A DNA stretch of 64,000 nt, from NCBI GenBank assembly GCA_040388985.1, contig JAZKAU010000003.1, positions 110,896 to 174,895 on the forward strand, read 5' to 3'. Each line of letters begins with the position of its first letter. Within the stretch, counting starts at the first letter, position 1. The notes beneath the pieces are model-generated. The model did not search any database and was not told the DNA's origin. It saw only the letters and a list, made by a program, of their open reading frames with translations. The stretch is from Patescibacteria group bacterium. GTDB taxonomy: Bacteria; Patescibacteriota; Minisyncoccia; Phycocordibacterales; Phycocordibacteraceae. A program made the translations under genes and the position numbers. Below are positions 36,801-39,430 of the stretch, piece by piece.

Positions 36801-37664
36801 AGCACTATCACCCGTTCCCTGTACCGTAGCGAGATATATATTCCCGATATTCTTGCTGAGCGCGAGTGCATCCGTTCCGATCTCTACATATGCTTTCGCC
36901 ACTGTTCGCGCGCTGTCCCGAAGTGCGCGCAGTGGATGCATCGCGATCGCCTGCAGAGACGTTATGCGCGCACGCGCGATGTCAGCGATGCTCGCGCCTG
37001 AAGCGGTAGCGACATCGACTGCGGCGGGATATGCGTTCGTATAGGTGCCGGTCGCGAACGCGACATCATGCGAGAGTACGCCAGCGTCCGGTACGACGAG
37101 CAGAGGAGCAGCATTCTGCGCAACGCGCGTATCACTCGGTCGGAACGATGATGGCAACTCTGAAAGATGCTGCACCAGAAGCGCTACTCGCAGCGCCGTG
37201 TCAGGAAGGTTCGAGAGCGCCTCTTGTACCTGCGGAGACACCGACGCATACGCACTGCCTGCGACGAGCACGAGCGTGACTGCGGCGGCGGCAAGTGGCG
37301 CATGTACGCGCGTGCGCATCGGGCTTAAGACGGGAACGCGTTGCGGTGCTGCGCCGTTCGGGGTCCGTTCTTCACGCACTAACTTGACTGTCGGCGTAGA
37401 TAGTTTCTGCTGAGCTAAGAGATATTCCTGCGAACGCGCCGCGGCTATCTGTGCAGTAAGTTCGATCTTGCGCTGCCGCTGGTCTTGAATGAATTTCTCG
37501 AGCGAATCCCTGTCAACGAGCCAGGCGCGTCCGACCTGTGCACCTTGTATCTTTTTCGAACGACAGAGGCGTGCGAGATAATCCGGATTGTATCCGGAAA
37601 TGGTTGATGCTTCTTTCGTTGAGACTAACGAAGAGGAGAGGATGTTTTTAGAAAGATCAGGCAT
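12888..37664 (-). CDS. Giant (8258 aa) membrane-anchored, phage-tail-fibre-like repeat protein with LVIVD propeller, S74 intramolecular-chaperone domain and Ig-like C-terminus
   Basis: A single uninterrupted ORF of 24,777 nt with a verified ATG start. It carries an N-terminal HTH-like domain and one TM helix (aa 122-140). It has hundreds of T/S/G/A-rich modules, including FNADLLDGQDS.YYL and LTGDGTATGPGSATFTLATVN..TFTVNAKGLITA, both reminiscent of phage tail-fibre repeats. It also has recurring GNVGIGTTSP motifs. Near the C-terminus it has 6-7 LVIVD repeats (YAYV...VVDVSNPAAP), then SDERLKNISG...LSPILYHW...GFSAQNVQSAIPEAV (Peptidase_S74-like), a coiled coil, and an Ig-like DUF5011-like domain. 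Codon composition is native high GC. Confidence 0.85.
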   Translation of the reverse strand: MPDLSKNILSSSLVSTKEASTISGYNPDYLARLCRSKKIQGAQVGRAWLVDRDSLEKFIQDQRQRKIELTAQIAAARSQEYLLAQQKLSTPTVKLVREERTPNGAAPQRVPVLSPMRTRVHAPLAAAAVTLVLVAGSAYASVSPQVQEALSNLPDTALRVALLVQHLSELPSSFRPSDTRVAQNAAPLLVVPDAGVLSHDVAFATGTYTNAYPAAVDVATASGASIADIARARITSLQAIAMHPLRALRDSARTVAKAYVEIGTDALALSKNIGNIYLATVQGTGDSALATAASARDTVVSMPRYADSLTAAYAQAVYAWTDASPRVAGELLGYVYVAGQAVGATAADAPSMLAAANDSFAQTWTDSSLAFVGSVTTAQVRSGQALLEPVQNIGTQYLALIEHGGEAGANLYEAADVTVAVVSPRAHVGAGALASAVQASGSGYAASSQLAASALTSVPASLERALAHLLIGGSRLARSLIDTGIRAIAGAVTPPSLAPGLSVVPFGQTNTVAFTPADTASYAASTSVSSVSHTTVIQNIVQNLFPQSVIGALSEEAVLAIVRPFVTESIDATLRNRPSGGGGGGGSSSGGGVSSDGATLTNVDIQSGNARFTNLTADTATIGSTTTGTLAAGASSLATTSVTGDLTVSGTLTAGTLTVSNLSSGSAVSAPYFTAASTTATSTFPNLASTNGAITNLSGTNSNFTNSTSTNLFASLLHATSGSFDTLSALNAIFGNTTTTNATTTNFFATTGTILNAVLSSFTATLANITTAVIADLTATNATFTNATSTNATSTNLFATHITGTDAAVTNLTADSATTTSLFTTILGIGSDYFTDLTGFGLVNTGGALSVSTTSFSGSGSGFNADLLDGFDSTYFLGNSFSTTSADTWLTTKSTTNLAEGSNLYYTDARARSALSSTATGLSYASSTGVFSLTPGYTIPLAASTTNWDSFYQTPSSRITAGTNLSWSGNTLNGASDSYLRGLLSATGPISYDNSTGVFSLATTSFSGGDAALLDGQDGSYYLNRANHTGTQLASTISDFSSTARGLLSSIATGLTYSNSTGVFSLTPGYTIPLTASTTNWETAYQNRITSLTTNGSGGLATLIGNVLNIPLIVSTTSVNTWSALQTFTSGINVGGSTFTSLLGSGLSNVGGALSVSTSSFSGSGSLFNADLLDGQDGSYYLNRANHTGTQLASTISDFSTTARGLFSSTATGLTYDNSTGIFSLTSGYTIPLTASTTNWETAYQNRITSLTTTGTSGAATLTANVLNIPQYQAQGNYITALTGDGTATGPGSAAFTLATVNGNVGTFNNVTVNGKGLVTAASNVSYLTGNQTITLTGDVTGSGTTSIATTLATVNGTPGTFGSSTAIPTFTVNGKGLITAVSTNAVVAPAGTLTGTTLASNVVSSSLTSVGTLTSLTVSGNTTLANATSTNLGVTNFTLGGSTFTSLLGSGLLNPGGALTLDSTTVRGLFSSTATGLTYTAGTGVFSLTSGYTIPLTASTTNWDSFYQTPSTRITAGTGLTWTGNTLNVSTSSLALDTTYFKQNGNSFGTTAVLGTIDNNALQLKTNNATRLTIDTSGNVGVGTSTPQSLFSVSGDIFTTTGVGIGTTTLSGHGLGISLAANSQRGILVMNFLNGTNSGPVITAQSAAGVGITLGSVGTAYTANTVGVTANTAYLQANQTNLRIINTSASAGRNISFYGFGATPSEMARFDAATGFFGVGTTTPSAQLSASSTSSGTAFLIQQNGSGPAGVFLGGNIGIATTTPGRTLTIAGDLGLTGALFAGNTSAGTNGQVLQTTGTGIQWVSTSTLGFQASGNYITALTGDGTATGPGSATFTLATVNATPGSFGSSTAIPTFTVNAKGLITAVSTNAVVAPAGTLTGTTLASNVVNSSLTSVGTLTSLTVSGQTTLGNASTTNLTIGSLSGLLYGNNGTVGAATVSSPLAFSAGTLSVAPGFTIPLTASTTNWDSFYQTPSTRITAGTGLTWTGNTLNVSTSSLAIDTTYFKQGGNAFGTTARFGTTDVNPLNIITSNATVATFLTNGNFGIGTTSPPERLTVAGNAAISGSVSAASLTTTGAANVNSLSIGSLSGFLKATAGTVGTALIDLSTDVTSTLPSANGGTGFASYSPGDILYADNSGVLAKLPVGSSGQVLKVQAGFPAWGIDQTIGAGGSGDGVFATSTNLIYPIDTSNVLLVGTNATSTTNSIFEVSGQEYISTRLGIATTSPSAALSVGGNALISGTGTFGQLIDNGLTANTLTYANGAKQLSSVTLGTGLTLTTGTLSVATSSFSGSGSGFNADLLDGQDSTYYLDRANHTGTQLASTISDFSTTARGLFSSTATGLTYTAGTGVFSLTSGYTIPLTASTTDWQTAYANRITSLTTNGSGGLATLTGNVLNIPLIVSTTSANSWSALQTFSGGITTAGTVTLGSLTGVLHASSGVVGASNVLLGSEVSGVLPVTNGGTGWSTITSGAVLYGNGSSALATTTPGSNGQVLALVAGIPTWVATTTAGTGLTYSAGSFNVNTSQNITTLSNLATAGFVKTDSSGVLSVDTNAYLTGNQTITLTGDVTGSGTTSIATTLATVNGTPGTFGSSTAIPTFTVNGKGLITAVSTNAVVAPAGTLTGTTLASNVVNSSLTSVGTLTSLTVSGNTSLANATSTNLGVTNFTLGGSTFTSLLGTGLTNSGGVLTVSTSSLALDTTYFKQGGNSFGATATLGTIDANQLNLITANATRLSVTSGGNVGVGTSTPSDKLDVAGNLRISSASPLISAVNPVNGSGLFGFSRKDDVSSASLQIAAFGGIGFTPGLGGSSISPTSTSSALWISTTGNVGIATTTPNYLLTVGVPSAINVDQGISFSRSAVAQDAIRYGIRSNSGGLYRGSITGTASNGTQTEIMSFLTGGQVGIGSTSPFARLTVKGLGNTSATTNFQTTNSLDTALFTILDNGNVGIGTTTPSQKLDVAGNIALSTGGFLYGDTINPSLSLSNAGGSILSYTSNNSITVGNGVIRFNTSGAQQMTINSSGNIGIGTTTPFAKLTLVGDLSVSGGGIYDGNSTRGTNGQVLQTTGTGIQWVATSTLGFQASGNYITALTGDGTASGPGSAAFTLATVNTNVGIFGGASSVPTFTVNGKGLITAVSTNAVVAPAGTLSGTTLASNVVSSSLTSVGTLTALTVSGATSLSTFTATSGTTTNATSTNFGVTNFTLGGSTFTSLLGTGLSNVGGTLTVSTSSLALDTTYFKQGGNSFGATATLGTIDSNQLNLITGNATRLSITSGGNVGIGTTSPLSILHIYSAGSSAVSLVEGPGGNYTSTIATSGGTGLVFNAANAFTIYGQGAANKGTTSGLSSYVTVLPGGNVGIGTTSPLYKLDVAGFINTDQYSGYKQAGSTILTASSTLNNLLVGISAGASITTATHITALGHQALFTATSSSDNTAIGFFALRANTSGNANTAIGSQALQSNTTGVTNVGIGSLALLANTTGNNNVGIGYEALFANTVSSGNTAIGSAALLSSTGISATAIGSSALQNNISATTTVAIGARAGLGAVGYSNQGGAFVGFQAGMSLDTGSDFNTLIGYQSGRSITTGARNVFLGNSTITASLNQVTTGSNNISIGNDVAVASSTASNQLNIGNLIYGTGLSGTGATISTGNIGIGTSSPSSILSVQSTNNGIPAATFAYNNTGANQFNIYPFSDGNTYLQHNGKAIFSPVGALTAQLVIDTTGNIGIATTTPGRTLTIAGDLGLTGALFAGNTSAGTNGQVLQTTGTGIQWVSTSTLGFQASGNYITALTGDGTASGPGSATFTLATVNGTPGTFGSSTAIPTFTVNGKGLITAVSTNAVVAPAGTLTGTTLASNIVNSSLTSVGTLTSLTVSGQTTLGNASTTNLTVSGATTLGNTTLANATSTSLYTTTLGINSESFTDLTGTGLVNTGGALTLDSTTVRGLFSSTATGLTYTAGTGVFSLTSGYTIPLTASTTDWQTAYTNRITSLTTTGTGAATLSANVLNIPLYAGTTTSNTWGGTQTFTNAPIFSSLSGLLQGNGASAVTAVGGTAGQFPYYNGTNTLTATSTIFLSATGKIGIATTTPGRTLTIAGDLGLTGALYAGNTNAGTNGQVLQTTGTGIQWVSTSTLGFTSGTVTSVDASGGTTGLTFSGGPITTSGTLTLAGTLGIANGGTNAASQTTNGVTYFNGTSITSGSALTYNGTNLALTGGAVTAPQFRASDSVGAPGFSFAGDATTGLYHAGSNLIGFATGGVGRAYIDGNGFFGIGSSTPAEALTVVGNGILSGNLSLGGNISATGNLTAANATTTSLYATTLGVGSDYLTDLTGFGLVNTGGALSVSTTSFSGSGSGFNADLLDGQDGTYYLNRANHTGTQLAATISDFATTARGLFSSTATGLTYTAGTGVFSLTAGYTIPLTASTTNWEAAYQNRITSLTTTGTSGAATLTANVLNIPQYQAQGNYITALTGDGTATGPGSATFTLATVNATPGSFGSSTAIPTFTVNAKGLITAAGSVAVVAPAGTLTGTTLASNVVNSSLTSVGTLTALTVSGATTLGNLTAALATTTSLTTTNFTLGGSTFTSLLGTGLTNTAGVLSVSTSSLALDTTYFKQGGNSFGATATLGTIDSNQLNLITGNTTRLSVTSAGNVGIGTTSPGTTLHVYAATPVIRIDGPASAAKTLSFAKDNISYWNIYNPASSGDLRFYDQQGVGDLLTLKTGGNVGIGTTTPAAKLDINNGSVSTVSGALRIEGGISAVNAGHSIDWYAGSANAGAAANAYARIAGVTDAAGSTGNLAFYTNSGLGASASTEKLRITGAGNVGIGTSSPISLLSIAGATGSNQIAIGNTSAAVVNGDTVAKIGFYTSDASSLINREVANINVVADGADYAGIAAPTALTFLTQNSSGALAERLRITAAGNVGIGTTTPFAKLTVVGDLSISGGGIYDNNATRGTTGQVLQTTGTGIQWVSTSTLGFAGATTGNSLLYGNGTGGFSNATVGTGLSFAAGTLSVATTSNALGLDGTYFKQNGNSFGATAVLGTIDSNLLQFKTNNTTRLTIDTSGNVGIGTTSPTSNLEVYRASTGASSFKVDGWTDPTAPMVYFASKAAEVGRSLFRIASDVNGTPTNAFEVLDNGNVGIGTTTPGSLLTIAGSQAGITIDRTANDSFLQLSSSGVSGGQFRYFAPNVVSIADVNGTDKVVFNTSSGNVGIGTTSPSAALHVYGSAQALAQIQSTDTFSYLMLADSGSTAANGQGIGSNGNNLIFRANGGTRATLTSAGNFGIGTTTPFAKLTVVGDLSVSGGGIYDGNSTRGTNGQVLQTTGTGIQWVSTSTLGFAAAGNYITALTGDGTASGPGSATFTLATVNGTPGTFGSSTAIPTFTVNGKGLITAVSTNAVVAPAGTLTGTTLASNIVNSSLTSVGTLTSLTVSGQTTLGNASTTNLTVSGQTTLGNTTLTSATSTNLGVTNFTLGGSTFTSLLGSGLSNVGGVLTATISTSSLALDTTYFKQDGNSFGATATLGTNDGNALVFETNNTEALRINTARQLVSSIGSSASVPSYTWTGDLSTGIGHPTANVIAFSTGSVERARIDGNGYLGIGTTTASEALTVGGNGIIAGTLLVSSTSLTTGLATFSSGINVNGESFTDLTGTGLLNTGGALTLDSSTVRGLFSSTATGLTYTSGTGVFSLTSGYNIPLTASTTNWETAYQNRITSATLPLSISSNTISIANALADGSTKGAASFNANDFDASSGNISIDYANGQAAASTSKGFLTAADWITFNGKQASGNYITALTGDGTATGPGSAAFTLATVNGNVGTFNNVTVNGKGLVTAASNVSYLTGNQTITLTGDVTGSGTTSIATTLATVNGTPGTFGSSTAIPTFTVNAKGLITAVSTNAVVAPAGTLTGTTLASNVVTSSLTSVGTLTALTVSGATTLGNLTAALATTTSLTTTNFTLGGSTFTSLLGTGLTNSGGVLTVSTSSLALDTNYFKQGGNSFGATAVLGTNDSNLLQFKTNNATRLTIDTSGNVGVGTSTPGSKLIVQGSGTGNVAIGEWGGGSTYGAISLSGSLATGSANFYSAGTSLFINRPTGGALDFRMNDVSQMYISSAGLVGIGTTTPADKLNVSAGNLRLSAIGVGQGIYADNGAGSGMFSLTRQSTGATGDLSVSAFGGIGLTGGNTAYATGATSYQAYLTSTGNFGIGTTTPTNKLDVNGNIATVIGSGGTLTLYDAVAGRNNLIKLGADASGAYINSTFSAGGTANLRLQTAGTDKVTITQAGLVGIGTTTPSTQLHIDSGTASVLPTISLSALGASVQNFGRASAYFTGSAATDLGIRYSSNLFIGATSNAAMVLTAAGNVGIATTTPGRTLTVAGDIGLTGALYAGNTSAGTNGQVLQTTGTGIQWVATSTLGFQASGNYITALTGDVTATGPGSAAATLATVNATPGSFGSSTAIPVFTVNAKGLITAVSTSTVVAPAGTLTGTTLASNVVNSSLTSVGTLTALTVSGQTTLGNASTTNLTVSGATTLGTLTASSATTTNEATTNFTLGGSTFTSLLGTGLTNTAGVLTVSTSSLALDTTYFKQGGNSFGATATLGTIDSNQLNLITGNTTRLSITSGGNVGVGTSTPSARLAVTGTAGTGDIFAIASSTEARLLTVTSTGNVGIGVIAPAALLNIGGAKSAASWTTTGLNLAVDASTLTDTSGSGTIATRAASSFGRPTLVASSPVTLTDASTLYIANAPLASTNTTITNAWALHVAAGNVKLGGNLVIGNGSNSTSVALLSSSNSTVFNTSSMTYGAAFEVTNTGIGGATGFDGNSQVSNAGTVTNAYGAIASVRILGGGTITNGYGVVGRTPTITSGTVTNAYGLYAQAQKITGVTNGYGVYAAGTSDINYFAGSVGIGTTTPATTLQVTGLGGTNPFRVSSSTNASMFEITQAGAALFNSQAGTSGQVLQSFGAGAPPQWVATSTLGFQASGNYITALTGDGTATGPGSATFTLATVNATPGSFGSSTAIPSFTVNAKGLITAVSTNAVVAPAGTLTGTTLAANVVNSSLTSVGTLTSLTVSGQTSLGNASTTNLTVSGATTLGTLTASSATTTNEATTNFTLGGSTFTSLLGSGLSNVGGALSVSTTSLGLAPATTGSSLLYGNGSGGFSNATVSSPLTFTGGALGINNAVADGATKGAATFLAADFNDNGSGLISLDYANGQAAASTTKGFLTAADWITFNNKQALLTGTTGQLGYFSATNTFTATSSIFLDTTGNFGVGTTSPFARLSVKGVGTTTAANFQLTNSSNTPLLTVLDSGNVGIGTSTPSTRLALTGGSYLQTVSTVPTVKGTVSIASGTNGIGVAISGRYAYSVDAAGGFKLSVIDIAVPSAPVVVGSVVDSTNLNGAFTVRVAGQYAYVTATGGNRFTVVDVSNPAAPAVVGSVTNSLLNSARGLYISGRYAYVAANGANALVVVDISNPTTPVIAGSIVDATNLLTPDSVYVSGKYAYVTTAGATGSRLTVVDVSNPAAPVVVGSLNNATYLLNAKDVYVSGRYAYVLGQNTNSFAVVDVSTPSAPTLVAGIVDNTNLNAPKNMYVAGRYAYVSANGTNRFTIVDISNPAAPTVVTSLQDSTNLNNPRGIFISGKYAYVNAGSKFTVLDIDGMEAPSASFGAANTQTLSVLENGDIGGDLYIRNGLLVGTGGISSGGSLTVLGTAGTNPFTVASSSGANLLTLTGAGNLGIGTSTPTAQLTTTGSVRFAGLASAGANLTTDNLGNVTASSDERLKNISGSFTRGLADIEKLSPILYHWNATSGLDQNGQYAGFSAQNVQSAIPEAVATDSRGFLTLADRPIIAASVNAIKELAGRTDSFASSFTSLAVRLDSVESKATAEQAAAQLPHELVATSVTAASMEIAQGVSAGTLHAQSVNADGTVSAARYIVPANATTFAYGSTTISVTLPDEVLTDSATNVDLYKLASYGVAGVQALSARFDTFALRIDDLESRLALLETAKNATSTSATGPLSIAASGLEKLLEELGIIVHDGIAQFTTIVTHQLVLSADSNGTASAGSVVIPNGQTEFKVENSLVLPTSKIFLTFTSSIDGSWYISKKEQGSFTITLAKAQDIPVSFDYFLVQTEGQIASVGNVPPSQPSVAPPNSGDQQTPPPSGTQPQNGTDPVIQLTGGSSIQIAQGATWTDPGATAAAADGTDLTSSIAVSGGVNAQTPGDYTLTYRATDASGRFAEATRTVSVLAPAVGGGSDAPPAPEPDPAPVVSSDPAPTPDSSPAS
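12999..13226 (-). other. Ig-like (BIG/DUF5011-like) domain near the C-terminus of the giant protein
   Basis: DPVIQLTGGSSIQIAQGATWTDPGATAAAADGTDLTSSIAVSGGVNAQTPGDYTLTYRATDASGRFAEATRTVSV shows a beta-sandwich pattern and is followed by a Pro-rich tail. Confidence 0.5.
14076..14408 (-). other. Peptidase S74 / intramolecular chaperone auto-processing domain (endosialidase and T5 tail-fibre type) inside the giant ORF
   Basis: SDERLKNISGSFTRGLADIEKLSPILYHWNATSGLDQNGQYAGFSAQNVQSAIPEAVATDSRGFLTLADRPIIAASVNAIKELAGR matches the remembered S74 consensus (SD.RLK.NI ... L.P..Y.y ... GfiAQevq...PE.V ... AIkEL). The serine of SDERLK is aa 7753. Confidence 0.65.
14745..15665 (-). other. LVIVD-repeat beta-propeller block (about 6-7 blades) in the giant protein
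   Basis: Repeated YAYV(x)...FTVVDVSNPAAPxVVGS units about 45 aa apart are characteristic of PF08309 LVIVD repeats. Confidence 0.65.
37245..37301 (-). other. Single predicted TM helix / signal anchor of the giant protein (aa about 122-140, PLAAAAVTLVLVAGSAYASV)
   Basis: Hydrophobic stretch preceded by the basic RTRVH segment. Confidence 0.5.
37485..37664 (-). other. N-terminal excisionase/MerR-type HTH-like domain (HTH_17-like) of the giant protein
   Basis: LVSTKEASTISGYNPDYLARLCRSKKIQGAQVGRAWLV matches the remembered pattern ls.kEaa..lgvs..t.yrl...g.ip..k.Gr.wri. It is paralogous to the N-terminus of the upstream 38357..39262 gene. Confidence 0.5.
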
Positions 37665-38277
37665 GTCGGATATCCGAATTACCTAAATAATAGCTTGCTA
37701 TTTCGTAATGCTCTCTATCGCGCGTGGGGATAAGATTCTGAAAAATTCTATGCCATGAACGTTCGCAAAAAATCTTCACTCGTTGAAGGTTCATGCAGAA
37801 AATGAAAGGAGTTCGATCGCGCATAGTTGCCGGAATTTCGGTTTGCGTGCAACTTTGATCTTCTTGAACGGACAACTTGAGAGAACCTTTGCTGCTTTAT
37901 TCCGTCTGATCAGGACTACAGACCTTCCTAACGAGCGAGAAACCTACCTATGGCAGAAGTTCCGGGGGTGATTCGAGCAACGCGTACTGACGACCGCTAC
38001 CGAAAAAGTAATACCATAGTCAAGAATATAGCTTATAGATACTAGCGATATCGGAAATACAACGGCTGAGGCAATACATATCTTGGGTTCGTGGGTGAAA
38101 TGATGGCGACAAGAAAGGTTACGGAGGAGAAGCCGGAAAGATTCGAATACAAGTAAGTTGTGATTATGTTTGTTTGCGCTGACTCTTTTTTGGACCCGAT
38201 AGTGATGCTCTGATTCCTGCTATAAATGCTGAAGATCATTAGATATTCCTTTGAGCGAGAACAAACGCTAAAGATTA

Positions 38278-38309
38278 TTAAAATAGAGACGAATTCGTCT
38301 CTATTTTAA
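38278..38309. terminator. 32-bp perfect palindrome TTAAAATAGAGACGAATTCGTCTCTATTTTAA (bidirectional terminator-like)
   Basis: Read directly. Located 48 bp downstream of the 38357 stop of the HTH-TM gene and flanked by A/T runs. Confidence 0.55.
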
Positions 38310-38319
38310 TAATTATTGT

Positions 38320-38343
38320 TTCTTGTCTATACGAGACAAGAAA
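38320..38343. terminator. Second hairpin TTCTTGTCT-ATACG-AGACAAGAA immediately after the gene stop
   Basis: 7-9 bp stem flanked by TTT/AAAA, in tandem with the 38278 palindrome. Confidence 0.45.
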
Positions 38344-38356
38344 AGCCTATTATAAG

Positions 38357-39262
38357 CTATCTAGAAAAGACTCTGTTGCCGACGAGAAAATTAATTATCG
38401 CGTTGTTACCCGCCAGCGTTTTCACGTATACGTCCGCATATCCGGATCCTATGACAGCAATAACGATTGCTATCAGTGCAATCGCAAGGAACAGAGCGAT
38501 GACTGGAGCATTGGACCGTCCTGAGAGACGCTCCCTCTTGAATTTAGGTTTGCGACCTTCTTTGCGCTTTTGTTGCACGGGAACTATCTTTTCAGGGGCG
38601 CTTGGCGAGCCTACGCGCCGAATAGGGATAATATCGGCTGCCTCCTCTTCGACAATCTCCTCATCAGGCTCGAGTTGCGTATCTATGCGGTGTAGCGGTA
38701 CGGCGACCTCTTCAGCGTACGAGACTTCTCTACTGTCTTCGTACCCGGTCTCTGGCGCCCCCGCTTCTTCTTCGATGTACTGAGCTACGTCTTGATTCCG
38801 ATTCTCCACAATCGGCTCTATAACGGCCGGAGTTGGTGCCGTCTGCTTCTGATCGAACCATTCCTTCCACGCTGTCTGCATGTCAGTAAGCGTGTCTTCA
38901 GGGGTTTCCGGGATATCTTCTTCCTCTATTACAGGCGTTTTAAGCTCTGGGACGAGAGCAACTGGCTCGGAGGTGTATACCGGCGGCTCCCACGTTGAAA
39001 GCGTTTCCGGAGTCGCCGTATCGCTCTGTGAGCCTACCGGAGCTGATGTTTCGCGTGCCTGCTCGACTTGCCTTACTTCTTCCGCGCCAAAACGATGTGC
39101 ACGGATGGAAGGCTCGTATACATACCAGCCACGACCCACCATCTTCGCATCGATATGACCTTCGCGGCAAAGCTGGCCGACATAATCTTTGGCATACCCA
39201 GTAATCTCTGCCGCCCGCTTAGACGAGATATACGTCTTGTCCCCTATAGTTATTTCATCCAT
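38357..39262 (-). CDS. HTH_17-like N-terminal domain protein with acidic disordered linker and C-terminal TM anchor (paralog of the giant protein's head)
   Basis: From ATG 39262: MDEITIGDKTYISSKRAAEITGYAKDYVGQLCREGHIDAKMVGRGWYV aligns with the giant ORF's N-terminus (S.K.A..I.GY..DY...LCR......VGR.W.V). This is followed by an E/P/T-rich linker and a C-terminal helix APVIALFLAIALIAIVIAVIGSGY. The tracked ORF extends to 39316. Confidence 0.6.
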   Translation of the reverse strand: MDEITIGDKTYISSKRAAEITGYAKDYVGQLCREGHIDAKMVGRGWYVYEPSIRAHRFGAEEVRQVEQARETSAPVGSQSDTATPETLSTWEPPVYTSEPVALVPELKTPVIEEEDIPETPEDTLTDMQTAWKEWFDQKQTAPTPAVIEPIVENRNQDVAQYIEEEAGAPETGYEDSREVSYAEEVAVPLHRIDTQLEPDEEIVEEEAADIIPIRRVGSPSAPEKIVPVQQKRKEGRKPKFKRERLSGRSNAPVIALFLAIALIAIVIAVIGSGYADVYVKTLAGNNAIINFLVGNRVFSR

Positions 39263-39323
39263 GCAGTAAGTATATACGTTTCTCGTCTCGTTTGGAGTAG
39301 GTTGTTCACACAACAAGAAGCGT

Positions 39324-39358
39324 AGTCATATATGGACTTCGTAAGTCCATATATGACT
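39324..39358. repeat. REP-like palindrome copy 4: AGTCATATATGGACTT-CGT-AAGTCCATATATGACT (16-bp perfect arms), preceded by GTAG
   Basis: Shares the ATATATGGAC/GTCCATATAT core with copies 1-3. Located 62 bp upstream of the 39262 start. Confidence 0.75.
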
Positions 39359-39430
39359 AAACCGCTCTCATTTCTGAGGGCGGTTTCGTGCCTGCTTTCC
39401 GATCTACGTATGATTGACCTGTCTCCTAGC

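Follow-up and report, generated by a model that had tools for sequence, protein, structure and literature searches.

Why should a giant surface protein and the small protein encoded just upstream of it begin with similar domains? The question arises in a 64,000-nucleotide stretch of DNA (the window) from an ultra-small Patescibacteria bacterium. The initial annotation had the two genes co-oriented and 692 bp apart, and these coordinates and lengths are correct. All of the following features lie on the minus strand:

12888 to 37664: giant gene, 8258 aa, an ORF running from 37664 to 12888
37476 to 37646: giant head, winged HTH (HTH_17), residues 7-63 (Pfam, hhalign, AF2)
37398 to 37511: long charged helix that follows the wing, residues 52-89 (AF2, pLDDT >94)
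37239 to 37301: TM helix of the giant, N-in, at about residues 122-142 (APLAAAAVTLVLVAGSAYASV; hydropathy, flank charge)
38357 to 39262: small gene, 301 aa, conserved ATG at 39262 and stop at 38357
39098 to 39250: small-protein head, residues 5-55 (pairwise and profile alignment, AF2)
38840 to 38902: conserved amphipathic helix TLTDMQxAWKEWF, residues 121-141 (AF2), within an acidic linker
38444 to 38509: small-protein TM helix, residues 252-273 (AF2, pLDDT 93)

Sequence comparison identifies the two N-termini as homologous, and the clear alignment claimed for them is borne out. BLASTP pairs giant residues 8-55 with small residues 6-53 (19/48 identities, E 5e-11). Lack of significance in a profile search had been named beforehand as refuting the claim; in phmmer searches of 848 six-frame ORFs from the window, each head matches only the other (E 2.4e-8 and 8.1e-7; next-best matches E 0.05-0.5), and a profile-profile comparison of 42 giant N-termini with 42 small proteins gives a probability of 98.7% and an E of 1.8e-16 over 51 columns, the giant head occupying columns 7-57. 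Outside the head, hhalign detects no homology between the giant and small proteins, and the TM segments are not covered; a loose G-S/T-G / S-x-Y-A motif follows the helix in both, not kept in all giants. The annotation had proposed duplication of a head-plus-TM unit, of which the homologous head and a single TM in each protein stand; as judged by alignment, duplication is demonstrable for the head only, the TM being excluded. The two genes are ancient paralogues rather than products of a recent local duplication.

On sequence matches and confident AlphaFold models, both heads are assigned to the MerR/excisionase class of winged helix-turn-helix domains, with TraN, Xis, BldC and RacA as nearest structures. 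Pfam HTH_17 matches giant residues 14-63 with 34.8 bits, the cut-off being 27. A signal-peptide artefact lacking an HTH fold had likewise been named beforehand as refuting the claim, and the domain is no such artefact: the model has a beta-alpha-alpha-beta-beta-alpha topology (strands 13-15, 41-44 and 47-51; helices 16-23 and 27-35, pLDDT 94-98), with pLDDT >94 across residues 11-90. The small protein itself scores 16.5 bits, under Pfam's cut-off, and is modelled at pLDDT 92-97 over residues 1-60; across the families, HTH_17 is matched by 25/25 giant heads and 67/111 small-family members. The charged helix of the giant, in which R77, E80 and Y81 are invariant columns, is possibly an oligomerisation helix.

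A single N-in transmembrane helix lies C-terminal of the head in both proteins, and both heads are anchored at the membrane's inner face. In the giant this helix had been placed right after the head; it does follow, at a distance of roughly 60 aa, with mean flank charges over 42 orthologues of +1.8 before and 0.0 after, and the roughly 8100 aa beyond it are predicted to be extracellular (Pfam: six LVIVD repeats, Peptidase_S74, Bact_surface_Ig-like). In the small protein an invariant HRFG follows the head, then an acidic linker (mean net charge -24.5; M128, Q129, A131, W132, W135 and F136 of its helix invariant), the basic stretch KRKEGRKPKFKRER and the sole hydrophobic helix (flank charges +3.2 and -0.8), which had been placed at the extreme C-terminus and is followed by a 28-aa tail.

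The arrangement is no local accident. Every orthologous locus that includes upstream DNA, in about 44 Paceibacteria-type genomes, has the gene order gatB - small - giant (giant orthologues, 4051-7214 aa), and the 1436 small-protein homologues (240-380 aa) are all Paceibacteria-type. In Patescibacteria more widely, the N-terminal module comprises 1-3 tandem heads and a single TM. It is either part of a giant surface protein, as a fusion, or the product of a separate 119-aa gene that directly adjoins a related giant gene, an alternation that reflects fission/fusion. Pairing of head genes is conserved in dozens of species. The earlier supposition that the pairing is not coincidence is supported by this conserved synteny and by the family-wide link of head-plus-TM modules to giant surface proteins.

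Around the small gene and between the two genes lie the following elements:

39323 to 39359, minus strand: terminator-like hairpin 3' of gatB
39269 to 39290, minus strand: promoter-like element CGAGACGAGA-aacgta-TATACT, which stops 6 nt short of the small-gene ATG
37665 to 38356: AT-rich intergenic region, 692 bp, 41% GC vs 56% for the locus
38319 to 38343, minus strand: inverted repeat TTTCTTGTCT-cgtat-AGACAAGAAA, 14 nt past the small stop
38273 to 38314: perfect 19-bp-stem hairpin 3' of the small gene, bidirectional terminator-like
37725 to 37733, minus strand: single DnaA-box-like TTATCCCCA, position -69 relative to the giant ATG
37687 to 37692, minus strand: putative promoter element of the giant gene, a -10-like box (TATTAT)
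37665 to 37677, minus strand: palindrome-like motif TCGGATATCCGAC, immediately against the giant's ATG

The gatB hairpin sets the small gene apart as a separate transcription unit, and the promoter-like element (at -27/-26 in 21/42 loci by regex, with degenerate variants in others) has a leaderless-type arrangement. Across 42 loci the intergenic region spans 417-755 bp at 28-49% GC, with conservation confined to its two ends. At the small-gene end, the opposite strand of the inverted repeat bears CGAGACAAGA; the minus-orientation motif falls 6-35 nt (mostly 11-19) past the stop in 37/42 loci, with a perfect stem of at least 6 pairs in 20/42. Near the giant, the -10-like box (TAttAT / TAgAAT / TAaAAT) keeps its position, the DnaA-box-like sequence is fixed in 40/42 loci (the intergenic region has such boxes at a density of 1.8 per kb vs 0.12 per kb elsewhere), and the candidate operator TCGGATATCCGAC, otherwise rare, sits at -13 or equivalent in about 40/42. 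Its form TCGGWTATCCGA(C/G), at the giant's ATG, also precedes head genes of distantly related lineages, with about 260-fold enrichment at those sites.

Docking, sorting or regulation had each been suggested for the shared head. The conserved cis motif tilts the balance toward regulatory DNA binding. Our best reading, to which we give somewhat less than an even chance (about 0.45), is that the two proteins form a pair of membrane-tethered, autoregulatory and putatively DNA-binding proteins. Such a pair would resemble ToxR/TcpP and VtrA/VtrB in logic, although the HTH class differs from both; we found no published description. The pairing probably links the giant surface fibre to regulation of its own gene.

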